DNA of 23,814 nt from an uncultured Candidatus Saccharibacteria bacterium (GCA_964605355.1 CAZSCE010000008.1:1-23814); one strand, 5' to 3'; counted from the stretch's first letter, positions 264 through 21,653 are shown. The notes: generated from the letters alone by a model not told the origin. Made by a program: numbers and translations.

Positions 264-2042
264 ATGGAAAATGAAATAAAGAAAATTACATGGATTATAT
301 ATGCCCGCAAAAGTACAGAGTCTGAAGATAGACAAATTCAATCTATTGATGATCAGATTAATTATCAGAAAGAAACTGCCGAAAGAGAGGGATTGAATGT
401 TATTAAAATAATTAAGGAATCTAAATCTGCTAAAGAACCACACAAGCGTGATGGGTTTACTGAGTTAGTTAAACTAATAGAAGAAGGTAAGGTGAACGGT
501 GTTCTCACATGGAAAATGGACCGTCTATCTAGAAACCCGATTGATAGTGCTACTATTCAATACTTCCTTCAGAAGAAAAAATTACTTTGTGTTAAAACTG
601 CGGAGAAAAATTACCTGCCAGAAGACAATGCTTTGATTATGTCTGTAGAGAATGGAATGGCTAATCAGTATATTAGAGACTTATCAAAGAATGTTAAAAG
701 AGGTTTAACCTCTAAGGCAGAAAAGGGATGGTTTCCAAATATACCGCCAATTGGATATTTAAATTCAAAGACAAGAGAGAAAGGTTCTGAGACGATTCTA
801 GTTGATGAACAACGATTTCATTTGGTCCGTAAAATCTGGGACTTAATGCTTACAGGAACATACTCCCCTCCTAAAGTATTGGAAATTGCTTCAAATGAAT
901 GGGGTCTAAAAACTCCGCCTCGAAAAAAGCTTGGCGGTAGGCCAATATCTAGAAGCCACATTTATACTATGCTAACTAACGATTTTTACGCTGGTTACTT
1001 TCACTATGGTGGCAAAACCTATATTGGTAAGCATAAGGCCATGATAACTATGGACGAATTTGAGAAGGTCCAGGTTATTCTTGGTAAGAAAGGTAGACCA
1101 AAGACACAATTCAATGACTTCCCTTTTACTGGAATAATGAAGTGTGCTGAATGTGGTGCTAGTGTAACTGCTTCTAGAAAAATGAAACTAGTAAAAGGCA
1201 CTGGGCAGGTGGTCCCATATATTTACTACCACTGCACAAAGAGAAAGCTAAATGTTAAATGTAAATCTAGACCAGTAACACTTTGTGATATGGAGAAAAA
1301 CATTACCGATATAATTGAAAGTAATTTAATTGATCCAGAATTCTATAAGCTTGGTTTAGAAACACTCAAAGATATGCACAGTCTTGAGATTAACAAGAGA
1401 CAACAAATATACGAAACCCAACTTCGAAATGTTGAAGAGACACAAAAGAAGATAGATAGAACACTTGGTTTCTTATTAGATGGAACCATAACAAAAGAAC
1501 AATATAATTTACAGAAGAAAGAATTTGAGGATGAATTAATGAGAGAAAAACAAAAGTTAAGCGAGACTGAAGCTAGAGCTAGAAATTGGACCGAGCTTAC
1601 TGAAAATGTTTTACACTTCTCTTCTTTAGCAATGGAAGCATTGAAAGATGGTAATGTACAAATCAAAAGAGAGATACTAAGTAGTATCGGTTGGAACCAC
1701 AGGCTAGATGGCAAAAAACTGTTTGTAGATCTACATTCCTGGTTTAAAGTACTAAAAGATGGTGAAAAACGACTATTACCTGAAATCAAGGCGTTGGAAC
1801 TAGATAAAATCGTTGACCCACAACGACAAAAGGAGGCTTTCGCCTCCATTCGTCCTAGTCTGTGCGCCGGGTTGGACTCGAACCAACGTAGGCCGAAGCC
1901 GCGAAATTTACAGTCTCGTGTAATTGCCACTATACGACCGGCGCATATTTGTCACAAACACATTCTATCAGATTCTTTATATTTATCAAGAGCTTCTTAT
2001 CGTGGTAACGAATATGAATTAGGCCATGTTTCATCACTCTAG
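264..2042 (+). CDS. Large serine recombinase (resolvase/invertase catalytic domain, recombinase domain, zinc ribbon and coiled coil). The annotated end is the first stop, but the last ~60 codons run antisense through tRNA-Tyr, so the true C-terminus is uncertain.
   Basis: The N-terminal IYARKSTESEDRQ...SIDDQ is the catalytic-serine resolvase motif. Also present are GYLNSKTREKGS, a zinc-ribbon motif (CAECGASVTAS...YYHCTKRK..C) and a long Q/E/K-rich coiled coil. Length and architecture fit phage/ICE-type large serine recombinases. Confidence 0.85.
   Translation: MENEIKKITWIIYARKSTESEDRQIQSIDDQINYQKETAEREGLNVIKIIKESKSAKEPHKRDGFTELVKLIEEGKVNGVLTWKMDRLSRNPIDSATIQYFLQKKKLLCVKTAEKNYLPEDNALIMSVENGMANQYIRDLSKNVKRGLTSKAEKGWFPNIPPIGYLNSKTREKGSETILVDEQRFHLVRKIWDLMLTGTYSPPKVLEIASNEWGLKTPPRKKLGGRPISRSHIYTMLTNDFYAGYFHYGGKTYIGKHKAMITMDEFEKVQVILGKKGRPKTQFNDFPFTGIMKCAECGASVTASRKMKLVKGTGQVVPYIYYHCTKRKLNVKCKSRPVTLCDMEKNITDIIESNLIDPEFYKLGLETLKDMHSLEINKRQQIYETQLRNVEETQKKIDRTLGFLLDGTITKEQYNLQKKEFEDELMREKQKLSETEARARNWTELTENVLHFSSLAMEALKDGNVQIKREILSSIGWNHRLDGKKLFVDLHSWFKVLKDGEKRLLPEIKALELDKIVDPQRQKEAFASIRPSLCAGLDSNQRRPKPRNLQSRVIATIRPAHICHKHILSDSLYLSRASYRGNEYELGHVSSL
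1863..1944 (-). tRNA. tRNA-Tyr (anticodon GUA), type II with a long variable arm; CCA not encoded
   Basis: Minus-strand sequence gcgccgg-tc-gta-tagtggcaat-tac-a-cgaga-cuGUAaa-tttcg-c-ggc-ttcg-gcc-tac-gttgg-ttcgagt-ccaac-ccggcgc-a. It has a 7 bp acceptor stem, a 3 bp D stem, a 5 bp anticodon stem with a GUA anticodon, a UUCG-capped variable arm and a canonical T arm. Confidence 0.85.
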
Positions 2043-10022: not shown

Positions 10023-10094
10023 GGCCTGGTAGCCAAGTGGTAAGGCATTCCTCTGCAAAAGGAATATACGGCGGTTCAATTCCGCCCCAGGCCT
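10023..10094 (+). tRNA. tRNA-Cys (GCA)
   Basis: ggcctgg-ta-gcc-aagtggtaa-ggc-a-ttcct-cuGCAaa-aggaa-tatac-ggcgg-ttcaatt-ccgcc-ccaggcc-t. The discriminator is U as expected for Cys. CCA not encoded. Confidence 0.85.
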
Positions 10095-10127
10095 CAAATT
10101 ATTAAATTGTGTCTAAATCACTTATAT

Positions 10128-10165
10128 GGTAAACTAATGTGATAGTATATTACTATTAGTTTACC
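10128..10165. repeat. Perfect 11-bp inverted repeat (ggtaaactaat ... attagtttacc) with a 16-nt spacer, ending 5 nt before the HNH start codon. Possible operator or mRNA hairpin.
   Basis: Read directly: positions 10128-10138 are the exact reverse complement of 10155-10165. Confidence 0.6.
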
Positions 10166-10170
10166 TAAAT

Positions 10171-10740
10171 ATGCCCAAAAAAAGAAAGTGGACAGAAAAT
10201 AATTTAAGACAGGCCGTCATTTCATCAACAAGTATGAGACAGGTACTTGGTAAAATTGGCCTAATTCAAGCTGGGGGAAATTATAATCAAATAAAAAAAT
10301 ATATTAAAGATCTAAAGATTAATATCACACACTTTAAAGGAAAGGGGTGGAACAAAGGAATGACTGGTATTGGTAAGCCAAGGATATGTATAGAAAATAT
10401 TTTGGTAAATAATAGTGATTTTCAAAGTTATAAATTAAAAAATAGACTTTTTGAAATTGGGCTTAAAAATAAGAAGTGCGAGGAGTGTGGCTGGAAAAAA
10501 ATATCAAAAGATGGTAGACTACCACTTGAACTAGACCATATAAATGGAGACAGCCGGGATAATAGAATTGAAAACCTTAGAATTCTTTGTCCAAATTGTC
10601 ATAGTTTAAAATTGACACATAGAGGGAAAAATAGAAAAAGCTCGGGTGGCGGAATTGGTATACGCGCAACACTTAAAATGTTGTCTGCGAAAGCGGATGC
10701 GGGTTCGACTCCCGCCCCGAGCACAGGGAGTGTAATTTAA
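10171..10740 (+). CDS. Free-standing HNH homing endonuclease (phage/Firmicutes-type). The ORF has no stop before entering tRNA-Leu(UAA), so its 3' 100 nt overlap the tRNA.
   Basis: The HNH core KCEECGW...PLELDHINGDSRDNRIENLRILCPNCHS is present. The N-terminal WTENNLRQAV...GGNYNQIKKYIKDLKINITHF module recurs in this endonuclease family. Confidence 0.85.
   Translation: MPKKRKWTENNLRQAVISSTSMRQVLGKIGLIQAGGNYNQIKKYIKDLKINITHFKGKGWNKGMTGIGKPRICIENILVNNSDFQSYKLKNRLFEIGLKNKKCEECGWKKISKDGRLPLELDHINGDSRDNRIENLRILCPNCHSLKLTHRGKNRKSSGGGIGIRATLKMLSAKADAGSTPAPSTGSVI
10640..10723 (+). tRNA. tRNA-Leu (UAA), type II
   Basis: gctcggg-tg-gcgg-aattggtat-acgc-g-caaca-cuUAAaa-tgttg-long variable arm (ctgcg aaa gcgga)-gcggg-ttcgact-cccgc-cccgagc-a. 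Confidence 0.8.
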
Positions 10741-10754
10741 CAATAGAATAATAT

Positions 10755-10827
10755 CCGCCCATAGCTCAGCTGGTAGAGCAGATCCCTCTTAAGGATAAGG
10801 TCGTAGGTTCGATCCCTACTGGGCGGA
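10755..10827 (+). tRNA. tRNA-Lys (CUU)
   Basis: ccgccca-ta-gctc-agctggta-gagc-a-gatcc-cuCUUaa-ggata-aggtc-gtagg-ttcgatc-cctac-tgggcgg-a. There is one G-A mismatch at the top of the anticodon stem. Confidence 0.8.
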
Positions 10828-10845
10828 CACGAAGTGCGGCACAGA

Positions 10846-10869
10846 AAAAGTGCTGGGAGCACTTTTGTT
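10846..10869 (+). terminator. Rho-independent terminator after tRNA-Lys
   Basis: The hairpin aaaagtgct-ggga-gcactttt has a 9 bp stem and is followed by gtt. Confidence 0.65.
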
Positions 10870-10991
10870 AGGGAGCGAAGCCTGTTTGAGATTTTTTAAA
10901 GTTTCTGAACGAATAAAAAATCCAAACACGGATACTGGTTCTGTAAGAACCGATTCCCTACATATTCGTGGTGACATGCAAACGTGTTATT

Positions 10992-11072
10992 GGGCGAGTG
11001 GTGAAACGGTAGACACGCTAGCCTTAGGAGCTAGTGCCGCAAGGCATGGAGGTTCAAGTCCTCTCTCGCCCA
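10992..11072 (+). tRNA. tRNA-Leu (UAG), type II
   Basis: gggcgag-tg-gtg-aaacggtaga-cac-g-ctagc-cuUAGga-gctag-variable arm (tgccgcaaggcat)-ggagg-ttcaagt-cctct-ctcgccc-a. Confidence 0.8.
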
Positions 11073-11083
11073 CAAAACTTAAA

Positions 11084-11277: not shown

Positions 11278-11562
11278 TTAGGCAGCAATATCTAAATCCT
11301 CTCTCGTTTTCAATAATCTTCCTAAATCCTTTACCTCATTTTCTGCCCCCTTGAGAATATCAAGGGTATCCTTCGTATCCTCTATTATATCTGAACTAAT
11401 ATTATTCATAGTGGTTACTTCATTTAAAATATTCCCTACCTCCCCAACTACTGCGCTATCTACCTGCTCGTCAATTAAAGGTTTATCAAACAAGGCATCA
11501 ATGTCGCTTCTTACTATTTTACCGAATTCCTCTTTGGCTTTTTGTTTTTTATCATCAGTCAT
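11278..11562 (-). CDS. Small acidic hypothetical protein (94 aa)
   Basis: The ORF is intact and lies 7 nt downstream of the preceding gene. It is D/E-rich. No recognisable family. Confidence 0.45.
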   Translation of the reverse strand: MTDDKKQKAKEEFGKIVRSDIDALFDKPLIDEQVDSAVVGEVGNILNEVTTMNNISSDIIEDTKDTLDILKGAENEVKDLGRLLKTREDLDIAA

Positions 11563-11569
11563 ATTATTA

Positions 11570-12766
11570 TTATTCTAAATTAGCTAATATCCTGTTAATT
11601 AAAATAACTTTAATCCTACTTTGTGGGTCATTACTGGTCTGTAATTGTTTTATTTTATTTTTAAGACCTCCCGCTATTTGTTCATCGCATTCCTTAGCAT
11701 CCAACCCTAAATCCAAACCCCTCTTTCTCATCATATCAATCCCCTTTTCAAAAGTATTAAGAGTAGCCCCTTCTTTACTTTCAACTAGTTCACTAACATC
11801 ATATCCTACCTCGCCTTTAGCAAAACCGATAAGTCTTTTTTGTATAGCCTCAAATTGATCATCATCAAGAATACTTTCATTTCCTCTCATTCTTTCAAAA
11901 ACTACTCTATTTTTAGCTAGAGGCTTGTAATCCAAACTATCACCAGCTTGTTTCATTCTTTCCTGAGCTTTTTTATGAAATTCGTTCTTAAGAACTTCAA
12001 ATATCTCATTTCCTTTTAGACTTTCCCTAATACCCTTGATCTGCTGTAAAGTGTCAACTATAGACTTTTGATCCAGTTTTTCTCTGTCTACCTTTAACCC
12101 GGCTATAGTCTGCTGAAGGCTACTTCTTTTGGCCCTGAATTCTGTTCTAGCTTTGGTAGAAAAATGAGTTAATATACCTCTATTTTTTTCTGTATCTGAT
12201 AGTTTGGTCTCAATGTCACTTTTTAATTTGGAAAAGTTTAATTGCACATCCCTGACAAATTTAATTTTCTCATCTGTAGTTAATTTGCTGTAATCAACAC
12301 TCATTTCAAGCTGTTTAGCTGTTTCCTGATATACTCCCTCTAAAGCCTTGTTTCTTTCTGTTGCTTCTAAATAAGCAACTATCCTTTTTGAAAACTTACC
12401 TAATTCTTCAGGATTTTTAATAGCTACGCCCTCTAAACTATCCATAAAGGGTCCCTCCACCACATCGCCAAAATCAGTACTGGATTCAGTAACTATAAAT
12501 TTTTTAACCTCATTTTTAATTCCTTGTATTGTATCAAAAGTGGCAATCTTTTCTCTTAAGTAATTATCATCACTAGCGTTATCAGTGGCATCAGGATTTT
12601 TTTGCAAAAAATTTAAAAACTTTGGATCGTTTAATCTTTTTTTTATCTCTTCATCTTGCTTGGCTTTATTCTCCTTTGCTTCTGTTTCTGCTTTTTCAGA
12701 ACCACCTTCCTCTACTTCTCCACTCATATCCTTTTTTTTCTCGGGATGTCTTAATATAAATGACAT
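11570..12766 (-). CDS. Coiled-coil hypothetical protein (398 aa) of unknown function
   Basis: Long intact ORF whose translation is K/E/Q-rich and predicted mostly helical or coiled coil. There is no TM segment and no recognisable catalytic motif. Confidence 0.5.
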   Translation of the reverse strand: MSFILRHPEKKKDMSGEVEEGGSEKAETEAKENKAKQDEEIKKRLNDPKFLNFLQKNPDATDNASDDNYLREKIATFDTIQGIKNEVKKFIVTESSTDFGDVVEGPFMDSLEGVAIKNPEELGKFSKRIVAYLEATERNKALEGVYQETAKQLEMSVDYSKLTTDEKIKFVRDVQLNFSKLKSDIETKLSDTEKNRGILTHFSTKARTEFRAKRSSLQQTIAGLKVDREKLDQKSIVDTLQQIKGIRESLKGNEIFEVLKNEFHKKAQERMKQAGDSLDYKPLAKNRVVFERMRGNESILDDDQFEAIQKRLIGFAKGEVGYDVSELVESKEGATLNTFEKGIDMMRKRGLDLGLDAKECDEQIAGGLKNKIKQLQTSNDPQSRIKVILINRILANLE

Positions 12767-14110: not shown

Positions 14111-14773
14111 ATGCTGCCATATCCTGTAATGATTGGTTTGGCAGTGATGGTAATCTACCTGGCGTGGCAGGCCATAGAAAGTGTGCGGGCAGGAAAACCA
14201 AAAAAACCTCTACCTGAGAAGGAGGAAGGCGACAAGAAGAAAGGTGACGTCGCACCCCCTAAAAAGGGCTTCAGTAGGTGGGTGGTGTTTTGGGTAGTGG
14301 TGCTGCTGGCAATGGCGATAGTTCTGACCTGGGGGTTTTCAACCTCTTGGGGTGGTAAGTCTGCGGTGCAGGCAGCACTGAATAGACAGACAACAAACCC
14401 ATCAACAGTCAGGCCCCCAGCGCGGACGTTTGACTACCGCTCGGAGGATGACCCAATAGAAGGAAATGAGTACAAAGACTCACCCAAGGCTCGCGCCATG
14501 ATGATTGGTGAGGATGATGACTCATGGTCCTTCCGGGTGTATTACGAAGTGGGTACTCCGGACGTAAAAAGTCCGCAAACAGCCGAGAGCTGTTTCCTGG
14601 TTCTAAAGCCCAACAAAGAAAAGAGGCCTGGGCGCTGGAGCAGGGACAACCCAAAAAGCGGTGGTTATGTCAAACTCAAGAAGGAGCAACCAATAGTTGG
14701 TGGCTACTGCCTGGAGATTGGCAATGACGAGGCGCCGGGGGCAAAAAGAGATGTGTATCTCTACCCTAGATAG
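14111..14773 (+). CDS. Two-TM membrane protein of unknown function, translationally coupled to the SPFH gene (stop TGA, one nucleotide, then ATG)
   Basis: Two hydrophobic helices (MIGLAVMVIYLAW and WVVFWVVVLLAMAIVL) are followed by a soluble beta-rich C-terminal domain. It shares the elevated GC and may be an NfeD-like partner of the SPFH protein, which is a hypothesis only. Confidence 0.5.
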   Translation: MLPYPVMIGLAVMVIYLAWQAIESVRAGKPKKPLPEKEEGDKKKGDVAPPKKGFSRWVVFWVVVLLAMAIVLTWGFSTSWGGKSAVQAALNRQTTNPSTVRPPARTFDYRSEDDPIEGNEYKDSPKARAMMIGEDDDSWSFRVYYEVGTPDVKSPQTAESCFLVLKPNKEKRPGRWSRDNPKSGGYVKLKKEQPIVGGYCLEIGNDEAPGAKRDVYLYPR

Positions 14774-14832: not shown

Positions 14833-14867
14833 CACCCCGTGCTTTACAGCGCGGGGTGCTTTATTTT
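14833..14867. terminator. Strong intrinsic terminator (10 bp stem caccccgtgc/gcgcggggtg, then ctttatttt); serves the + strand SPFH operon and probably the convergent minus-strand pilin operon
   Basis: The hairpin was read directly and is followed by a T-rich tract. It lies between two convergent operon ends (14773 and 14874). Confidence 0.7.
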
Positions 14868-14873
14868 GCATAT

Positions 14874-15200
14874 TTATTTTCCACTAATTGTCCCCATAAT
14901 CAAATTAATTATTCCGTAGGCCGCCACCATAATAAAGAATCCCATCACTCCCCACAGCATATTCATGCCTCCTTTTTTCCTCTCTTCAGAACTCTCAGCA
15001 TTTTTCACAAACTGAAATACCCCCCAGAGAAAATAGATAACGGCTACAGCCACCATAAGAGCAATAACAGGATTCACGATATTTACTATAATATTCTTAA
15101 TCAAAATATTGTAATCCCCTATTGGTGTAGCCCCACCGCTAACTGAGGTGGGCCAGGCCACCTTATCAGCATATGCTTTTTTAATAAGTTCGGGAAGCAT
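14874..15200 (-). CDS. Small two-TM membrane protein, paralog 1 of a VirB2/TrbC-like pilin family; no signal peptide
   Basis: Hydrophobic helix (VIALMVAVAVIYFLWGV), charged loop (KNAESSEERKKGG) and second helix (MLWGVMGFFIMVAAYGIINL). This layout is shared with the five upstream paralogs. Confidence 0.5.
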   Translation of the reverse strand: MLPELIKKAYADKVAWPTSVSGGATPIGDYNILIKNIIVNIVNPVIALMVAVAVIYFLWGVFQFVKNAESSEERKKGGMNMLWGVMGFFIMVAAYGIINLIMGTISGK

Positions 15201-15212
15201 TAGTAAATATTA

Positions 15213-15566
15213 TTAGGGAAGAAGTCTGGTCACATTACCGGCACCGGTGGTATTAACACCAAAGAGACCCTGTAATATAGCCACCAAGCCCCAAATGGAC
15301 ACAATAACGGCTAGAGAGATAATACCTAGGATCATTTGATTCTTGGCCTTATCCTTTGCGTCTTCATCAGCTGACATAGCATAACGAATAACATTCCAGA
15401 TAAACCACACTACCGCTAGGGCGATAAGAAACACCACTAATTGGTCCAAAAGGGCTTTGGCGCTACCAATAAGAGACTGTAGATAAGTTGTGTTCACTGT
15501 TTGAGCAAAAGCCATAAAAGGCAATGCCCAAGCTGCTCCCGCGATGATTTTAACTGCTTTTTTCAT
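15213..15566 (-). CDS. VirB2/TrbC-like pilin paralog 2, with a signal peptide and two TM helices; start chosen at MKKAVKII
   Basis: Signal peptide MKKAVKIIAGAAWALPFMAFA is followed by LVVFLIALAVVWFIWNV, the loop SADEDAKDKAKNQ, and MILGIISLAVIVSIWGLVAIL. Confidence 0.55.
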   Translation of the reverse strand: MKKAVKIIAGAAWALPFMAFAQTVNTTYLQSLIGSAKALLDQLVVFLIALAVVWFIWNVIRYAMSADEDAKDKAKNQMILGIISLAVIVSIWGLVAILQGLFGVNTTGAGNVTRLLP

Positions 15567-15642
15567 TTTTTTCTTGATTAATCCCACTTTGCATAAAGCT
15601 TCGCAGGACAAGATTAATAAATTAATAAATTAATAAATACCT

Positions 15643-16128
15643 CTAATAGTTTTGTGGTGGTGGTGCCTGACGTGGAAGAAATGGTGATGGCGCTCCAGTA
15701 GAAGGATTAATATATGCTGCTGTCCCATTAGGTGGGTAGGAAGTTGGAGCGACCGTCACCCCAGGAATCATATTATTAATACTATTTGGTGCGCCTTCAT
15801 TACTATCAACCCCAAAAGCGTTTCTTAATAGACCCACAATACCCCAGATAGAAACCATGACAGCAATAGCAATAATACCATTTATCATTTGTGTTCTGGC
15901 CTTGTCCTTGCCATCTTCCTCTGAGGACATTGAATATTTTGTGACATTCCAGATAAACCAAACTACAGCTAAAGCAAAAAGAAAGATTATAATATTATTA
16001 AGAAGACTTTTCCCACTATTAATGGCACCGCCTAAATAATCAAGATTTACCTGTGTCCCCGCGGCCATAACCAAAACCGGCAAACCAAGAGTGATAACTG
16101 AACCTAAACTAATTAATATTTTTTTCAC
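15643..16128 (-). CDS. VirB2/TrbC-like pilin paralog 3, with a Pro/Ser/Thr-rich C-terminal tail
   Basis: Close paralog of the previous gene: FLFALAVVWFIWNVTKYSMSSEEDGKDKARTQMINGIIAIAVMVSIWGIVGLL. It carries an extra PTSYPPNGT...PPPQNY tail. Confidence 0.55.
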   Translation of the reverse strand: MKKILISLGSVITLGLPVLVMAAGTQVNLDYLGGAINSGKSLLNNIIIFLFALAVVWFIWNVTKYSMSSEEDGKDKARTQMINGIIAIAVMVSIWGIVGLLRNAFGVDSNEGAPNSINNMIPGVTVAPTSYPPNGTAAYINPSTGAPSPFLPRQAPPPQNY

Positions 16129-16212
16129 AATTTTGTAAATTTAATTTTTAAACTACGACCTTTGATATTTTTACCTTATAATTATACCTTTTTACATTAA
16201 AATCAGCAATTA

Positions 16213-16500
16213 CTATTTTGGTGGTGTTATTTGGATAGTTTTTGGGGTGGTATTCAAATTAAAAGTGCCAGAGACAACAGCCACCAGTCCCCAAAGGGAA
16301 ACCATCACAAAAATACCAATAATCCCCCACAACATATACTGCTTGCCCTCTTCCTTCTTCTCCCCACCCTCAGAGAACATAAGAATAAGAACACCGTATA
16401 AAAATACCACCACAGCTAGGCCAATTAAAAGTGGCACAATTGGCGCTAATATTTTACCAATAAACACCTGCTCCACTAAATCTTTAAAATTGGTTATCAT
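16213..16500 (-). CDS. VirB2/TrbC-like pilin paralog 4 (no signal peptide)
   Basis: LLIGLAVVVFLYGVLIL, the loop SEGGEKKEEGKQY, and MLWGIIGIFVMVSLWGLVAVV. Confidence 0.5.
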   Translation of the reverse strand: MITNFKDLVEQVFIGKILAPIVPLLIGLAVVVFLYGVLILMFSEGGEKKEEGKQYMLWGIIGIFVMVSLWGLVAVVSGTFNLNTTPKTIQITPPK

Positions 16501-16521
16501 TATATTTTATTATTTATTAAT

Positions 16522-16878
16522 TTATCTTGCTCCGGTAGTAACTTTTACTGTACCTATTACCACATTAGCAATAACATCAGCGCCTAAGAGAATGGCTCCA
16601 CCAATAATTGTGGCATAAAACATATCCTTGGCCTTTGATACTTCTGATTCATTACCTTGAGCCATAACAAATTTAAAACCGGAGTAAATTATAAAGAAAA
16701 CTACCACCACCCCACCAACTTTAGCCACTAAATCCATAAGGCTACCCACAATCCCCCTCACGTCATTTGATTTCAAGGGATTATTTATAGTAGTATCAGC
16801 AGCAAAAAGAATAACCGGTACTAATAATAAAAATAATGAAACTATAGATGGTAGATATTTTTTATAATTTTTTTTCAT
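16522..16878 (-). CDS. VirB2/TrbC-like (Gram-positive T4SS-type) pilin paralog 5
   Basis: Signal peptide is followed by VAKVGGVVVVFFIIYSGFKFVMAQGNESEVSKAKDMFYATIIGGAILLGADVIANVV. This is the canonical layout of a signal peptide, a helix, a short K/E loop, and a second helix. Confidence 0.6.
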   Translation of the reverse strand: MKKNYKKYLPSIVSLFLLLVPVILFAADTTINNPLKSNDVRGIVGSLMDLVAKVGGVVVVFFIIYSGFKFVMAQGNESEVSKAKDMFYATIIGGAILLGADVIANVVIGTVKVTTGAR

Positions 16879-16880
16879 AT

Positions 16881-17315
16881 TTATTTTAAGAATTTAAAAA
16901 TTCCTGGTGTACCAGTATCTGATGTGTCTACTAATATATTTAATATTGTATAAACTATCAACCAGGCTGTAAGTATTATAACAAACCCCATCAAAGTAGA
17001 CCAGAGAAGGCTTTTTGCTTTATCTTTATTACCTGGCTTTTCCCCAGAGGTCATATATAGAAAACCACCCCAAATAGCCGAGATGGTAAATATCACCCCA
17101 GCAATACTGATAATCCAATTAATAATTCTATTAATTAAACCTATGAACTCAGGAAATTTGCAAGGTACTGCATATGGGCCCGTTCCTGACAAGCCGCAGC
17201 GAATCAATGGCGTATAAATATTTTCAGCAATAGAGATAACCGGTAAAATAAAAACAAAGAGCAAAATTATGGAAGTCAGGCTGGCGAGAAATTTTTTATT
17301 TAATAAATGTGACAT
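16881..17315 (-). CDS. VirB2/TrbC-like pilin paralog 6, with a Cys pair in the pre-helix region
   Basis: Signal/TM segment is followed by IRCGLSGTGPYAVPC, then IISIAGVIFTISAIWGGFLYMTSGEKPGNKDKAKSLLWSTLMGFVIILTAWLIV. Confidence 0.55.
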   Translation of the reverse strand: MSHLLNKKFLASLTSIILLFVFILPVISIAENIYTPLIRCGLSGTGPYAVPCKFPEFIGLINRIINWIISIAGVIFTISAIWGGFLYMTSGEKPGNKDKAKSLLWSTLMGFVIILTAWLIVYTILNILVDTSDTGTPGIFKFLK

Positions 17316-17323
17316 TTTAATTA

Positions 17324-18622
17324 TTAAAGAAGACTATCAATTCTATCAGAAGCGGTGTTAACGGCGGGACCAATTGCTTCTCGGCCCGTTGTATATGATT
17401 CTACCATATCCTGGAAAATAGCGCCTGTCTGTACAGCGTTTGGATCAAGCCAGCCCTTGCTTAAAATGGCACTCTGGTTAAAAACTGTTTTAATAGCGTT
17501 TGTCTCCGGTAAGCTTAAAATATCTCTTCTGGCTGATGGCAAATTAAAAGTGTTAGACCAATATGGAAAAGCGGCAGCGCTAGTAAGGCTACTTATAACA
17601 GTATAAGTTCCAGCTGGATCAGCAGAATTTTTCATTATGGCAAGGCCCATTATATTACCAAAAGTATTGTAAACCTTGGCATTAGTAATCTGTGGTAATA
17701 AAGCCACATCAAAATTCAAATTTGGATTTTTGTTTTTTATAGTCATATATTCTGACGCAAAACCAAAATACATAGCTAAATCTCCATTAGTAAAAGAATC
17801 AAGCGCACTGGGTAATGACCGGTTCCAAGAATAAGTAACCTTTGTTGGATTAGAGAAATTTGTATAAAACTGGAGAGCTAAACTGGCGGCTGAGGCAGAA
17901 GAACCAAAAGTATTATTCAAAACGCTTTTATATGAACCATCAGTGTTTTGACTCATGATTGGATTACCAGACTGTATAATAAGAGCACTCAATATTTCTT
18001 TAGCATTATTTATATTTCTAAACTCTCCTAGGGCCACAGTACTGGCCAAAATATTTCCGCCCTGATCCTTTCTGGTCATCTTTGGCACTAAGCTGGAAAT
18101 CTCGGTCCAGCTCTGTGGGGGCTTTGTCACTCCGGCATTATTAAAAATATCCCTATTCCAGTACATAACCAAAGGATCCACCATCAGAGGCAGGGCCACC
18201 GCACCGTTACTATTTAAATATAACTCCCCTTCCTGAATATACGTTTGTTTGAAAGTAAGTTCAGGCAAAGACACAAAAGGAATGGTATAAATTCTGTTTG
18301 TATACCGGACAATCAGATCAGCCGGTAATATAATGGCATCTGGACCCACACCAGAAGCCAGGGCCTCTACTAAATCCTGATCAAAAGTGGCCAAACTTCG
18401 CTGTGCATAACTTACATTGTATTTCAGATTATTCTCACCAAAATATTTTGAAGTGAGAGAGGTAAAAGCATCTGCAGATAGTGTGCCCCATATTGTAATA
18501 TTTATTTGGGTTTGCCCATTGTTTGTACTGGCCTTATAAGTAGAAAACATAATACCTCCAATAATTATAAAAAAGATAAACAATCCTATCACCACATATT
18601 GAAAAAGTTTATTATTCTTCAT
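17324..18622 (-). CDS. Membrane-anchored extracellular solute-binding protein homolog (ABC-type SBP family 1 fold) with no adjacent permease or ATPase
   Basis: N-terminal TM anchor. The motifs ITIWGTL, PDAIILPADLIVRY, LPLMVDPLVMYWNRDIF and DLAMYFGFASEYMTIKNKNPNLNFDVALLPQ are typical of MalE-like sugar-binding proteins. Confidence 0.55.
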   Translation of the reverse strand: MKNNKLFQYVVIGLFIFFIIIGGIMFSTYKASTNNGQTQINITIWGTLSADAFTSLTSKYFGENNLKYNVSYAQRSLATFDQDLVEALASGVGPDAIILPADLIVRYTNRIYTIPFVSLPELTFKQTYIQEGELYLNSNGAVALPLMVDPLVMYWNRDIFNNAGVTKPPQSWTEISSLVPKMTRKDQGGNILASTVALGEFRNINNAKEILSALIIQSGNPIMSQNTDGSYKSVLNNTFGSSASAASLALQFYTNFSNPTKVTYSWNRSLPSALDSFTNGDLAMYFGFASEYMTIKNKNPNLNFDVALLPQITNAKVYNTFGNIMGLAIMKNSADPAGTYTVISSLTSAAAFPYWSNTFNLPSARRDILSLPETNAIKTVFNQSAILSKGWLDPNAVQTGAIFQDMVESYTTGREAIGPAVNTASDRIDSLL

Positions 18623-18631
18623 TTTATTTAT

Positions 18632-19225
18632 TTAAACTATTTTTCTAAAAATTAAACCATAATGCTCTGCGCCGGCGGTTATTTCCCGATCTAATTTGAA
18701 ACCGTGGTCCTGAAACAGGTCCGTCATTTTGATTTTAGAAATAATGTCTCTCTCCAGTGGACCAATCCCCCCAAAAGAACCACCCCAATCCACCACCAAG
18801 ACCCGGCCGTTTCCGCGTAAAATACGCATGGCCTCTAAACATAAGCCATCCTTATTCTCAATTTGGAAAAATAAATTAGCTATCACAATAGCGTCCATAG
18901 AATTCTCCCTCAATTTTGTGCCACCTAGATGCTCTAAATCTCCCCAAACAATATCTAGATTATTTATATGATTTTGTTTGGCACCATTTTTTAATTTGCC
19001 CAATAAATCCTTTTGAATATCCACAGCAAAAACTTTGCCAGAAGGCGCCACCGCCCTAGCAATAGCCATACTATAAAATCCTGACCCCGAACCAAAATCC
19101 GCCACCATCATCCCCGGGCTCAGCGCAAATTGTTTTATATTATTTTCCGGATCAGAGAACATGAGGATATTATACCCTGTATGATTTTTATAGACAAGTG
19201 ATAGAGGCGAGGAGATCACCTTCAC
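18632..19225 (-). CDS. Class I SAM-dependent methyltransferase. The annotated start overlaps the gyrA end by 38 nt, and internal Met codons at about 19162 or 19108 are alternative starts.
   Basis: [16 protein letters not shown] is the glycine-rich SAM-binding motif I. VFAVD is a motif II-like acidic residue. ~197 aa. Confidence 0.75.
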
Positions 19226-21653
19226 GTAATTTCATTATTCTAACTCCCTGAGTTTGGCGGCCTAATGTAGGAATTTCTTTGGTTTCCACGCGGATCACCT
19301 GGCTCTTTTTAGAAATGGCGGCAATCTCATCTATCTCATCTGTCATCACGCGGGCCGACATTATGTCACCGGTCTTGGCAGTTACCTTCATCGTTTTAAT
19401 TCCAGACCCACCGCGATTTTGCACTTTATATTCTTTCAAAGCAGTTCTCTTACCATAACCATTACTGCTAATCACAAAGAAAGTTGGGTTTACCATGGTT
19501 TTCTTGACCACATCTGTGCTGACCACAAAGTCATTCTTGCCCAGTTTGATAGCGCGCACACCGGCGGCGCCGCGGCCCATTTCCCGAATATCACTTTCCT
19601 TGAAGCGGATGGACTGACCCTTGGCGGTCGCTAAAATCATCTCGTCTGTAGGGGCAACAAACTGCACGGAGGTGAGCTCGTCTCCATCATGCAGTGAAAT
19701 AGCAATCAAACCACTCCTGCGCACATCATGGAAAGCGGCGGCATCTACCTTTTTCACTGTTCCTTGTTTGGTCACCATCATCAAAGCCAGTTTACTATTT
19801 TTTAATTCCTTTGGCATAGCCAAAACAGAAGTCACTTTTTCCTCCGCGGAAATAGATAAATAATTTACCAGGGCTTTACCTTTGGTGGCGCGCTTACCCT
19901 CTGGTAATTCATGCATTTTTATTTGATAAGCTTTACCTTTATCACTAAAGAAAAGAATATCACTATGCGTAGTGGCGCTGAGGAAATTCACCACAAAATC
20001 CTCGTCTTTGGTATCCAAATCCACCACCCCCACTCCCCCTCTTTTTTGTTTTTTATAATCATCCGGACTGGTTCTCTTTACATAGCCACCAGTAGTGAGT
20101 ACTAACACATTTTCCTCATCCGGAATCAAATCTTCATCAGACATATTACCTACCCCTTGTTTTATAATTCTGGTTCTTCTCTCATCAGCATATTTCAACG
20201 CGGTCTCTTGTAATTCAGATTTTACCACCGCTAAAATTTTCTTGGCACTGGATAATAAATCCTTCAAATATTTTATCAGGGCTTCTACTTCCTTTAATTC
20301 ATCCTCTATTTTTTGTCTTTCCAAACCGGTTAAACGGCCAATCTTCATATCCACAATAGTCTGGGCCTGAATTTCTGAGAATTTAAATACCTTTATTAAA
20401 TTCCTCTTGGCATCCTCCACGTCTTTAGATTTCTTGATCAGTTTAATAATCTCATCTATATGATCCAAGGCCTTTTTTAAGCCAAACAAAATATGCTGGC
20501 GGGCTTCCGCTTTTGACAAATCAAATTCTGTTCGCCTTTTTACCACCACTTTACGGTGATCAATAAATTCATCCAAGAAAGATTTCAAAGACAAAGTTTG
20601 CGGTACGCGGTCCACCAGGGCCAGCATGTTGTAATGGAAAGTTTCCTCCAGCTGAGTATGTTTGTATATAAAATTCAAAACTTTTTGTGGCTGGGCACCG
20701 GATTTCAAATCAATCACAATACGTAGATCCTTGGCGCTTTCATCACGCAAGCCTTTTATCCCTTCTACTTTTTTCTCTCGCACCAAATCAGCAATAGCAA
20801 TAATCAGTTCTGCCTTGTTCACCCGGTAAGGAATAGAAGTAATAATTATTTGATAGGTGCCTTTTTTGTCCTCAACTATTTCCGCTACACCACGCACTAC
20901 CACGCCGCCGCGGCCGGTAGCATAAGCATGACTAATGTCAGCCTGATTATAAGCCACACCACCAGTTGGGAAATCCGGGCCTTTGATAAAGCCAAGTAAA
21001 TCTTCTGTAGTAGCGTCAGGATTATCAATCAAATGCACAGTGGCATCTACTACTTCTTTCAAATTGTGCGGTGGAATATTTGTAGCCATACCCACAGCAA
21101 TACCCAGGGTTCCGTTTAAAAGTAAGTTTGGTAAAGCGGCCGGTAATACATCCGGTTCCTTTCTGGTGTTATCATAGTTTGAGCGCCACTCCACAGTTTC
21201 CTTTTCTAGATCTTTTAGTAGTTCACCGGCGATTTTAGACATCTTGGCCTCCGTATACCTCATAGCGGCAGCAGAGTCACCATCAATGTTACCAAAGTTT
21301 CCTTGACCCACTACCAGCGGATAACGGTGTGAGAAATCCTGCGCCATTTTCACCATCGCTTCATACACAGACGCATCACCATGAGGGTGATAATTACCAA
21401 GCACCTCTCCCACCACAGCGGCAGACTTTCTGGTTTTGGCACCGGAGGTGAGGCCCATCTCATGCATAGCATAAAGGATACGGCGGTGCACCGGTTTCAA
21501 ACCATCACGCACATCAGGCAAAGCACGGTCAGTAATAACAGTCATGGCATAGTCAATAAATGACTCTTTCATTTCCGTGGTAATACTGCGCTGAGAAATA
21601 CCCCTCTCTGGTATTCTTTCCTCTATTTCTTTTTTCTTTTCTTCGTTTTTCAT
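19188..21653 (-). CDS. gyrA: DNA gyrase subunit A
   Basis: The N-terminus ([33 protein letters not shown]) includes the active-site region (AAMRYTE) and the QRDR-like segment ([12 protein letters not shown]). The C-terminal beta-pinwheel repeats are present. 821 aa. Confidence 0.92.

Follow-up and report, generated by a model that had tools for sequence, protein, structure and literature searches.

Arrays of VirB2-like genes have been published for Patescibacteria (Wang 2023; Quinonero-Coronel 2025), and the kind of array analyzed here is therefore already known. In Saccharimonadia, the T4SS cluster contains the pilin series, which is essential (PMC10633639). For Paceibacteria genomes, Table S3 of PMC12102498 gives a VirB6–VirB3–TrsD–VirB4–PF18895 locus together with separate pilin/PrgF matches that are not near virB4, and for Campbellbacteria, three-gene runs remote from virB4 that were found by the FATA_PrgF profile. 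PrgF itself is a VirB2-like protein that Gram-positive conjugation cannot do without, and its formation of a pilus is supported by modelling and labelling (bioRxiv 10.64898/2025.12.18.695078). The linkage of a pilin array to a solute-binding protein (SBP) and a methyltransferase, away from T4SS genes, seems undescribed so far. Likewise, the conserved methyltransferase–SBP–array unit and the ordered array, both derived from 86 related loci, look new.

The organism belongs to the class Paceibacteria (Patescibacteria/CPR). The window analyzed here is an entire contig of 23,814 bp, in which ORFs of at least 90 aa were catalogued, and the ones without an evident housekeeping role were run against Pfam. 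Six successive small ORFs lie on the minus strand (14874–17315), as had been claimed in the preliminary description, preceded on the same strand by the gene of a membrane-anchored MalE-like SBP (17324–18622; PF01547/PF13416). The first two encode a type A pilin-like protein (16881–17315, 144 aa) and a type B pilin-like protein (16522–16878, 118 aa). Four type C genes follow, at 16213–16500 (95 aa, without signal peptide), 15643–16128 (161 aa, with signal peptide), 15213–15566 (117 aa, with signal peptide), and 14874–15200 (the short terminal form of 108 aa, without signal peptide). The longest form of the third of these (15213–15611, 132 aa) begins at TTG 15611, but the true start is likely the ATG at 15566 (MKKAVK...), giving 117 aa. 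With the corrected start, which sets the fifth value, the gaps from the SBP through the last pilin are 8, 2, 21, 84, 76, and 12 nt, in close agreement with the 2 to 84 bp first given. A terminator scan found a G+C-rich hairpin at 14833–14858 (11-bp stem, 8 GC pairs) with T-runs on either side, on both strands. This hairpin is probably a bidirectional terminator that closes both the array and the convergent gene at 14111–14773.

All six small proteins exceed the gathering score (26.6 bits) of the T4SS pilin profile PF18895, at 28.5 to 45.8 bits and E-values of 7e-12 to 2e-6. Type A scores 45.8 bits, type B 31.3 bits, and the type C proteins, in gene order, 35.5, 28.5, 29.5, and 36.3 bits. Chance is ruled out because six such matches fall within 2.4 kb, and the orthologues of the array proteins carry a precomputed PF18895 assignment. 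Of the VirB2/TrbC-like identity originally proposed, the PF18895 part thus stands, but the TrbC/VirB2 profile PF04956 is missed: the best window protein reaches 11.7 bits (E 0.31), under the 27.9-bit gathering score. A module of the family relative P0274 scores 76 bits on PF04956 over the same stretch as PF18895, and the relation of the window proteins to TrbC/VirB2 is therefore at the superfamily level only. The six proteins also match NF045849 (Mycoplasma ICE pilin-like) near full length, at 16.1 to 35.7 bits and E 5e-9 to 7e-3 (2e-8 for 16213–16500 and 6e-7 for 15213–15566); all are under the 40-bit cutoff, and they are similar to this family, not members of it. In hhalign comparisons, weak matches that run in register over the full length were obtained for type A with Ti VirB2 (P 0.0014, 63 columns) and for the type C profile with pCF10 PrgF (P 0.006, 65/75 residues; shuffled controls for this profile, P at least 0.13).

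The layout is VirB2-like in all six proteins, with two TM helices, a short charged loop, and usually a signal peptide. The signal peptide had been called optional, and it is indeed present in four of six, the exceptions being 16213–16500 and 14874–15200. In the AF2 model of type A, a signal-peptide helix is followed by a long helical hairpin (helices 54–89 and 94–128); two hydrophobic segments are seen in the remaining window pilins by hydropathy and alignment. The predicted two-helix hairpin agrees with the architecture described earlier, but its fold match to pilins is not significant: the Foldseek match of highest probability was the Aeropyrum Ced conjugation pilus (8dfu, prob 0.84), and neither PDB sequence searches nor fold searches gave a significant pilin match. 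Could these be unrelated small proteins with two TM segments (holins, bacteriocin-immunity proteins, or another kind of membrane peptide) that are drawn to the pilin profile by hydrophobicity? Such proteins would fit the generic helical hairpins that alone emerge from the fold searches and the weak sub-threshold Pfam matches to other membrane families. Against this, all six pass a curated threshold, bridging sequences score strongly on TrbC, lysis, bacteriocin, and phage genes are absent nearby, and a custom HMM had hardly any other matches in the roughly 1.3 Mb of flanks, which makes the explanation highly improbable. A profile built from the six proteins matched 46,686 cluster representatives. 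The six small genes are genuine members of the T4SS pilin family.

Across related loci, the array runs in the order of cysteine-loop type A, type B, and 0 to 6 type C copies, and ends with a short type C form without signal peptide. Among the 86 related loci, the architecture is ABCCCC in 31, ABCCC in 17, and ABCCCCC in 8, and a minimal A+B array is found in one complete Campbellbacteria genome. Type A, a single copy at rank 1 in 75 loci, is composed of a signal peptide, an invariant Cys40/Cys52 loop, and a helical hairpin with an SGxxPGNKxKAK loop; C40, C52, and W118 are invariant in the alignment of 86 sequences. Type B consists of a signal peptide and a hairpin. Its 82 members in 81 loci stand at rank 2, or at rank 1 where type A is missing, and the window type B protein has its best match at rank 2 in all 31 six-gene arrays. 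The type C clade occupies ranks 3 to n. The orthogroup of the terminal gene 14874–15200 closes the array in 48 of its 49 members, and the best match of the window gene is at rank 6 in 22 of the 31 six-gene arrays.

The six paralogues of the window share 21–54% pairwise identity. The closest window pair, 15643–16128 and 15213–15566, shares 54% identity over 102 aa, so that the "nearly identical" pair of the preliminary description is not near-identical; the remaining pairs share 21–43%. The protein of 15643–16128 has a Pro-rich C-terminal tail of 45 aa and is a recent paralogue of 15213–15566. Low-complexity N- or C-terminal tails are found on other array proteins, and the type A protein of locus L033 bears an N-terminal subtilase domain. 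The same description suggested a filament for host adhesion with interchangeable or variant subunits, here taken as antigenically varying, and published work on arrays of Patescibacteria puts forward the same idea, with Bartonella and Anaplasma as analogues. In line with it are the varying number of middle type C copies (0–6), the recent duplicates, and the varying exposed tails. However, the fixed A-B-Cn order implies that the paralogues are mostly not interchangeable: types A and B and the terminal type each occur as one orthologous copy in a fixed position class-wide, which points to distinct roles. We consider the variable filament very unlikely.

A gene of a class I SAM-methyltransferase (18632–19162, minus strand, 176 aa), omitted earlier, precedes the SBP and opens the tight conserved unit; the SBP, formerly taken as the first gene of the block, leads the array but not the unit. 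The longest methyltransferase ORF begins at GTG 19225 and overlaps the gyrA 3' end, and the start was placed by comparison with the 176–179-aa orthologues. The protein matches Pfam Methyltransf_31/11/25, and its NCBIfam matches are at the domain level only. In 83 related loci, it is the gene immediately preceding the SBP, at a median distance of 10 nt. The whole unit of methyltransferase, SBP, and pilin array is found in 86 loci across Taylor-, Zambryski-, Campbell-, Yonath-, and Wolfebacteria. Its genes are closely spaced, at medians of 10, 4, and 18 nt, the second of which is the junction from SBP to type A. The unit appears to be a conserved chromosomal operon of the class Paceibacteria (Patescibacteria/CPR), present in about 80 species. 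The gyrA gene (19188–21653, minus strand) is a syntenic upstream neighbor outside this tight unit. It is upstream in 73 loci, separated from the methyltransferase by 210 nt at the median and 2,930 nt at most, and restriction-modification genes are inserted in between in L001/L002. The supposed link to gyrA is thus synteny only, with the methyltransferase gene between gyrA and the SBP.

VirB4, VirB6, and VirD4 were not found in the window by the ORF list, the Pfam scan, or phmmer with T4SS core proteins, which bears out the absence stated before. T4SS core genes are also absent within 8–10 kb in the 86 loci: phmmer with core proteins against 5,338 ORFs (window and 86 loci) gave zero matches at E<=10, and VirB4, VirB6, and VirB3 are missing from the precomputed Pfam lists of the related loci. 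The case for a T4SS link is therefore built on membership in the family and on what is seen in other lineages. Among array-bearing genomes in the dataset of PMC12102498, VirB4 is present in 9/11, and a tenth has VirB3 and TrsD; the VirB4 count is not discriminating because about 80% of Patescibacteria assemblies carry VirB4.

The SBP matches SBP_bac_1 (PF01547, 74.3 bits, E 2e-20) and SBP_bac_8 (E 9e-17), and in PDB sequence searches 4r9f (E 1e-11). Its AF2 model (pLDDT 90.9) has an N-terminal TM helix at about residues 4–30, predicted to be long and uncleaved, a variable linker (31–42), and the SBP fold from residue 43. The best Foldseek matches of the model are the oligosaccharide SBPs 4r9g, 4qsd, and MalE (E~1e-21, 16–18% identity). 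The protein is thus a family 1 SBP (SBP_bac_1, MalE-like), scoring above the profile threshold, and the two-lobe periplasmic binding fold is predicted with confidence. Its orthologues, at 40–73% identity in >80 species, always have the pilin array directly after them where the contig allows. In 83 orthologues, one face of the TM helix (F7, F15, G22, F26) is conserved at 93–100%, and the linker is merely 24% conserved. A class III (type IV prepilin-like) signal is absent on inspection, as a [KR]G cleavage motif is missing from the N-terminus (MKNNKLFQYVVIGLF...). Genes for an ABC permease or ATPase were found neither in the window (ORF list, Pfam scan) nor in the flanks of L001–L006; the SBP-fold protein with a TM anchor and no ABC partners was thus correctly recognized at the outset.

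The SBP and the pilins may be co-located but functionally separate, the SBP feeding an ABC importer elsewhere and the pilins serving a T4SS, packed together in a reduced genome. The fold is that of a standard MalE-like carbohydrate binder, and mixed functions are common in CPR operons; at this locus, the neighbors also include a generic methyltransferase and gyrA. Orphan SBPs feed distant ABC importers in other bacteria, and some lie beside genes for conjugation, as does the TraC of pCF10, which is annotated as pheromone-binding. However, the SBP–type A junction is extremely tight (median 4 nt) and is retained in every locus that reaches past the SBP, down to 40% SBP identity. Moreover, one face of the TM helix is conserved, in contrast to a passive anchor, and the flanks of L001–L006 are free of ABC genes. 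We therefore regard separate functions as somewhat unlikely, and infer from the operon structure and the conserved TM face that the SBP may associate with the pilins.

Here, we tentatively propose as the likeliest reading, with a confidence that falls a little short of even, that the pilins are subunits of a T4SS-type pilus or conduit whose core is encoded elsewhere, and that they work with a tethered oligosaccharide receptor. Family membership, a hairpin with a charged loop, tight coupling, and a fixed order are observed, in about 80 species. The hairpin proteins would be embedded in the membrane such that the two termini face outward and the Lys/Asp/Glu loop faces inward; exposed termini are supported by the positions of the subtilase domain (type A, L033) and the low-complexity tails, which sit at termini. 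A monoderm-type core (VirB4, VirB6, VirB3, and TrsD) encoded at a separate locus would assemble the hairpins into a surface pilus or conduit. In this assembly, the single-copy A and B proteins would serve as specialized subunits, at the tip or the base or as an adaptor, and the bulk would consist of the lineage-variable type C copies. Through its conserved TM-helix face, the SBP would be kept beside the pilus or conduit, and it would capture host-derived carbohydrate, so that the operon may couple host contact with nutrient sensing or uptake.

Canonical pili have one major pilin. An ordered set of 2–8 different hairpins is unusual for a pilus and counts against the pilus reading. The family relatives include covalent "poly-pilins" with 2–17 hairpin modules per chain, and chains of up to 17 modules would be awkward for monomer-by-monomer extraction from the membrane, which also argues against a pilus. 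Alternatively, the A, B, and C hairpins may form a hetero-oligomeric ring or pore in the cytoplasmic membrane, independent of any T4SS, to which the tethered SBP delivers its ligand for unconventional uptake or sensing. The fused relatives suit such a side-by-side membrane assembly, as do the fixed subunit order, the minimal A+B form, the conserved SBP TM face, and the location of the array apart from all T4SS genes in 86 loci. A ring or pore of this kind is nevertheless without precedent, and the operon has no energizing component. In addition, relatives in other classes adjoin virB4 and are essential with the T4SS, and the PrgF and VirB2 relatives form extruded pili; a T4SS-independent complex is accordingly clearly unlikely.

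The closest described systems to the proposed pilus or conduit are the VirB2-like arrays of Patescibacteria (Southlakia epibionticum SEML1_0006-0019; 441 arrays in Quinonero-Coronel et al. 2025), which belong to the same family (PF18895) and the same phylum and, as in the window, are without relaxase. They comprise 2–11 divergent tandem paralogues of about 25% mean and 54% maximum identity, against 21–54% here. Those arrays were scored in the neighborhood of virB4 (Fig. S9 legend) and were reported mainly in Microgenomatia and Saccharimonadia, whereas the window array is remote from T4SS genes, is joined to an SBP and a methyltransferase, and has the fixed A-B-Cn order. SBP, ABC, and gyrA are unmentioned in Quinonero-Coronel et al. 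2025. PrgF (PrgF_B2, Enterococcus pCF10) is likewise small, with two TM helices and a charged loop, and belongs to a monoderm system of the MPF-FATA type, the class that gave rise to the Patescibacteria T4SS; however, it is a single gene inside a T4SS operon beside VirB6 (PrgH), without an SBP or methyltransferase partner, and the sequence similarity is marginal. VirB2 (Ti), TrbC (RP4), and TraA (F) share the signal peptide, the two hydrophobic helices, and the short charged loop. The mature VirB2 core aligns with type A, and the relative P0274 passes the TrbC model. Compared with these canonical conjugative pilins, the window differs in its monoderm host, its multiple subunit types, and the lack of adjacent VirB3/VirB4. 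The Mbov_0395 family of Mycoplasma ICEs (NF045849, 80 positions) shows a near-full-length likeness with scores below the cutoff, but its members are single genes in a mobile element, unlike the window array. For an SBP on or near a pilin scaffold, the Sulfolobus bindosome, in which sugar SBPs are surface-assembled by the Bas pilin-like system, offers a functional analogy (PMC3047682). The bindosome relies on type IV pilin-like class III signal peptides, which the window SBP does not have, and on a type IV pilus-type ATPase, not on VirB2-like hairpins. Enterococcal plasmids encode PrgZ, an SBP that binds pheromone, and in Agrobacterium the sugar-binding ChvE works together with VirA. The TraC annotated on pCF10 is, like the window protein, an SBP without its own permease beside T4SS functions. 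PrgZ/TraC and ChvE are family-5 peptide binders or regulatory co-receptors, whereas the window SBP is of the family-1 carbohydrate type and is directly coupled to pilin genes.

The gene block lies on the minus strand and opens, in transcription order, with gyrA (19188–21653), followed by the genes of a class I SAM-methyltransferase of 176 aa (18632–19162; longest ORF to 19225) and of a solute-binding protein (SBP) of 432 aa that matches SBP_bac_1 and SBP_bac_8 (17324–18622). Behind the SBP stand six small genes, W1 (16881–17315), W2 (16522–16878), W3 (16213–16500), W4 (15643–16128), W5 (15213–15611, probable start 15566), and W6 (14874–15200), and the intergenic gaps from the SBP to W6 are 8, 2, 21, 84, 76, and 12 nt. 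All six proteins score 28.5–45.8 bits against Pfam PF18895 "Type IV secretion system pilin" (curated threshold 26.6). Their membership in this family is thereby established, which bears out the preliminary description of six pilin-family genes after an SBP, and a holin or immunity-protein reading was rejected, in part on these scores. The pair of paralogs described as nearly identical is the closest pair, but the identity is only 54% over 102 residues; the remaining pairs share 21–43%, and a signal peptide is missing from two of the six proteins. The array is downstream of gyrA, as had been described, except that the methyltransferase gene intervenes between gyrA and the SBP. The absence of VirB4, VirB6, and VirD4 genes from the window also held: the window is the entire contig, and no type IV secretion system (T4SS) or ABC-transporter components were found among the remaining ORFs of its 23.8 kb. 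Internal promoters in the array are not claimed, as the scan gave 33 hits versus 24.3 ± 4.4 expected from the shuffled control. A short tandem repeat (TTATTAAT, three copies, 15613–15637) lies inside the 76-nt spacer separating the recently duplicated W4 and W5, and a G+C-rich hairpin with T-runs on both strands (14833–14858) ends the block, facing a convergent gene.

The closest SBP homologues (up to 73% identity) belong to Candidatus Taylorbacteria and other "Paceibacterota". The source organism is a member of the class Paceibacteria (Patescibacteria/CPR). Three contigs with SBP homologues were inspected, from Taylorbacteria, from a 218-kb Paceibacterota contig (48% SBP identity), and from Wolfebacteria, and all three showed the identical order Lactamase_B_3, small protein, gyrA, methyltransferase, SBP, and five or six PF18895 genes. 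An SBP scan with one genome per species added 80 further loci (SBP identity 40–68%) from Taylor-, Zambryski-, Campbell-, and Yonathbacteria, Paceibacter, and others. ORFs were called in 86 related loci and the window, and the matches of an HMM made from W1–W6 were mapped. Pilin-family genes follow the SBP on the same strand in every locus whose contig reaches beyond it, numbering 1–8 per locus with a mode of six, and the HMM found almost no other matches in the flanks. Neighboring genes lie close together: the median is 10 nt between the methyltransferase and SBP genes, 4 nt between the SBP gene and the first pilin gene, and 18 nt from one pilin gene to the next; SBP and pilins so arranged may be functionally independent, which we consider unlikely. 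The gap from gyrA to the methyltransferase has a median of 210 nt and a maximum of 2.9 kb. Judging from these gap sizes, the methyltransferase, SBP, and pilin genes form the tight conserved unit and gyrA is a syntenic neighbor, so that the single-operon view running from gyrA through the array stands as to synteny but not as to the junction. In two Taylorbacteria loci (L001:6600–9418 and L002:6253–9062), a type I restriction-modification pair (N6_Mtase and Methylase_S) sits between gyrA and the methyltransferase, which indicates that this junction is not under tight constraint. Homologues of PrgJ, PcfC, PrgH, and PrgI of pCF10 and of VirB4 and VirB6 of the Ti plasmid were absent at E ≤ 10 from the 5338 ORFs of the loci. 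PrgL (VirB8) weakly matched a TM protein of 112 aa encoded upstream of gyrA in one locus (L070, E 4e-4), but a VirB8 domain would not fit into so short a protein, and the match was put down to composition.

Several other features of the window were recorded. The segment 12976–14773, with a G+C content of 0.46–0.49 against about 0.37 in the rest of the window, encodes two proteins convergent on the array, a Band_7/SPFH protein of 377 aa and a TM protein of 220 aa, and an SPFH gene occupies the equivalent convergent position in 13 related loci. Between this segment and a tRNA cluster (Cys, Leu-taa, Lys, Leu-tag; 10023–11073), two minus-strand ORFs of 398 and 94 aa, Lys/Glu-rich and with no Pfam match, occupy 11278–12766. 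None of the 86 related loci contains a homologue of the 398-aa ORF, which thus appears to have been inserted there in this lineage specifically. The cluster itself is broken by a 189-aa HNH endonuclease ORF (10171–10740), whose 3′ end overlaps tRNA-Leu(taa) (10640–10724). Near the contig end, the region 264–2571 carries a gene for a 592-aa large serine recombinase (domains Resolvase, Recombinase, and Zn-ribbon), the 3′ end of which overlaps tRNA-Tyr (1862–1944, minus strand), and an adjoining 213-aa ORF with no Pfam match; this region may be an element integrated at the tRNA.

All-against-all BLAST and clustering of 424 array proteins separated them into three deep clades, here called types A, B, and C; W1 belongs to type A, W2 to type B, and W3–W6 to type C. 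Type A occurs as a single copy per locus and comes first in all 75 loci, type B (82 members in 81 loci) is always immediately behind A, and type C (267 members in 78 loci) fills ranks 3 to n. The last type C gene represents a conserved short orthogroup of about 90–95 aa, mostly without a signal peptide, and the orthogroup of W6 takes the terminal array position in 48 of its 49 members. The number of type C genes in the middle of the array differs between loci, and some of these genes, W4 and W5 for example, are local duplicates. ABCCCC is the most frequent architecture (31 loci), before ABCCC (17 loci) and ABCCCCC (8 loci), and the best matches of W1 and W2 fall at ranks 1 and 2 in each of the 31 six-gene arrays. 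The array is an ordered set, and this A-B-Cn order in three deep clades speaks against the proposal that its paralogs are interchangeable or variant subunits. The fixed order argues for heteromeric assemblies over antigenic-variation cassettes, which alters the reading of such arrays across the phylum. In a complete Campbellbacteria genome (L052:7462–10076, CP011215.1), the operon is minimal, consisting of methyltransferase, SBP, A, and B, with type C copies absent before the convergent SPFH gene.

The relation of these proteins to classical T4SS pilins was examined by profiles and models. The AlphaFold2 model of type A (86-sequence alignment, mean pLDDT 75) begins with the signal-peptide helix, which a poorly ordered Cys loop joins to a long helical hairpin (54–89 and 94–128), and an invariant Cys pair (C40 and C52) lies between the signal peptide and the first helix. 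The window proteins barely touch the TrbC/VirB2 model PF04956 (E 0.31), and a PDB sequence-profile search with the profile of the six retrieved nothing but designed helical proteins (E > 0.06), none of them a pilin. In hhalign, the type A profile aligned with Ti-plasmid VirB2 over both helices (P 0.0014) and type C with pCF10 PrgF over 65 of 75 residues (P 0.006), both P values being marginal. Shuffled controls reached 0.02 with the profile of type A and 0.075 with that of type C; profile-to-single-sequence comparison with F TraA gave no match. All six proteins match the NCBIfam "Mbov_0395 family pilin-like conjugal transfer protein" of Mycoplasma ICEs near full length, below its cutoff. The profile of W1–W6 collected 46,686 cluster representatives at E ≤ 1e-3. 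One of them, the 1000-aa, multi-module protein P0274, contains a module (residues 446–542) that passes both PF18895 and PF04956 (76 bits) over the same stretch, and this bridge links W1–W6 transitively to the classical VirB2 family. Membership in the wider VirB2/PrgF superfamily is thus well supported at the level of sequence comparison. Many top relatives are "poly-pilins", in which one N-terminal signal peptide is followed by 2–17 TM1-loop-TM2 modules in a single chain of self-consistent topology, for example P0236 (1775 aa, 17 modules), P0262 (1147 aa, 11 modules), P0239 (555 aa, six modules), and P0234 (336 aa, three modules). No earlier description of this topology was found in the literature examined. 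Pfam revealed no extra domains in the relatives with long N-terminal regions, except for a subtilase fusion in the Patescibacteria UBA2135 locus L033 (DCXN01000025.1).

The AlphaFold2 model of the SBP (pLDDT 90.9) consists of a TM helix (4–30), a low-confidence linker, and a two-lobe binding fold. Its nearest solved structures are oligosaccharide binders with 16–18% identity, namely CpMnBP1 with mannotriose, Atu4361 with sucrose or maltotriose, and MalE. Across 83 orthologues, the mean fraction of the commonest residue is 0.57 in the ectodomain, 0.51 in the TM helix, and 0.24 in the linker. Within the anchor, Phe7 and Phe26 are invariant and Phe15 and Gly22 are conserved at 93%, and their spacing places them on one face of the helix. 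This conserved face suggests a specific membrane partner, and we infer that the helix makes a specific intramembrane contact and is not a passive anchor.

In the reading with the best support, which we propose tentatively, A, B, and C would be the subunits from which a T4SS-type pilus or conduit is built, with the tethered SBP as a receptor. A T4SS core whose genes lie elsewhere would assemble the pilus or conduit; single-copy A and B may be specialized subunits, C may be the bulk, lineage-variable subunit, and the SBP beside them would act as a carbohydrate receptor. The 11 related, array-bearing genomes in the dataset of Quinonero-Coronel et al. 2025 (PMC12102498), which are Paceibacteria in its Table S1, include nine with VirB4, against a phylum-wide frequency of about 80%, and one more with VirB3 and TrsD. 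In locus L033 (4722–6347), the type A gene at position 1 encodes a 541-aa fusion of signal peptide, Peptidase_S8 subtilase (E 3e-17), Cys pair, and T4SS_pilin module (E 2e-9), from which it follows that the type A N terminus can bear an extracellular enzyme. Together with low-complexity tails on others, the subtilase domain fits termini exposed to the outside. Three points speak against the pilus: T4SS genes are missing from all examined loci, pili do not usually have a heteromeric order, and the covalent poly-pilins are at least as compatible with an assembly packed side by side in the membrane as with an extruded filament. Such an assembly could be a ring or pore of hairpins independent of any T4SS, with which the 2–17-module chains agree; we regard it as improbable. 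More speculative still is that the SBP and the ordered A-B-Cn hairpins constitute one machine, for which we found no described counterpart. It would be a "feeding tube" derived from the T4SS and equipped with a carbohydrate receptor of its own, or else an SBP-gated, T4SS-independent ring or pore of VirB2-like hairpins. If true, Paceibacteria would gain a route for host sugars free of an ATP-binding cassette. Patescibacteria are unable to synthesize most of their building blocks and obtain them from hosts. The class-wide operon joining pilin paralogues to a carbohydrate-type SBP provides a testable hypothesis, a pilus or conduit tied to nutrient capture, with defined targets in the SBP ligand, the conserved TM face, and the roles of A, B, and C.

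VirB2-like pilin arrays as a kind of feature are already published. A PF04956 and PF18895 survey of 3035 genomes reported 441 arrays of 2–11 pilin genes each, mostly from Microgenomatia and Saccharimonadia, with 25% identity on average and 54% at most; its array track was defined as near virB4, and SBP, ABC, or gyrA are not mentioned (PMC12102498). For Paceibacteria, its Table S3 lists a VirB6-VirB3-TrsD-VirB4-PF18895 locus and separate VirB2-/PrgF-profile matches flagged as not near virB4, and in the genome of one of our related loci (L020) a single gene of this remote kind was detected (PMC12102498). Full-text literature searches for a connection between an SBP and pilin arrays in Patescibacteria yielded no paper. 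Four features appear to be undescribed: that the array is detached from virB4 in Paceibacteria, that methyltransferase, SBP, and pilin genes form an operon throughout the class, that the order A-B-Cn is fixed, and that one face of the SBP anchor is conserved. In pCF10, PrgF is a VirB2-like protein essential for conjugation and has been modeled as a pilus on a VirB6 pentamer (December 2025 preprint, bioRxiv 10.64898/2025.12.18.695078). In Southlakia epibionticum, a series of predicted pilins, six according to a 2025 review (PMC12857230), lies within the T4SS cluster and is essential (Wang et al. 2023, PMC10633639); in the sole genetically tractable species of Patescibacteria, T4SS and pilin series are essential.
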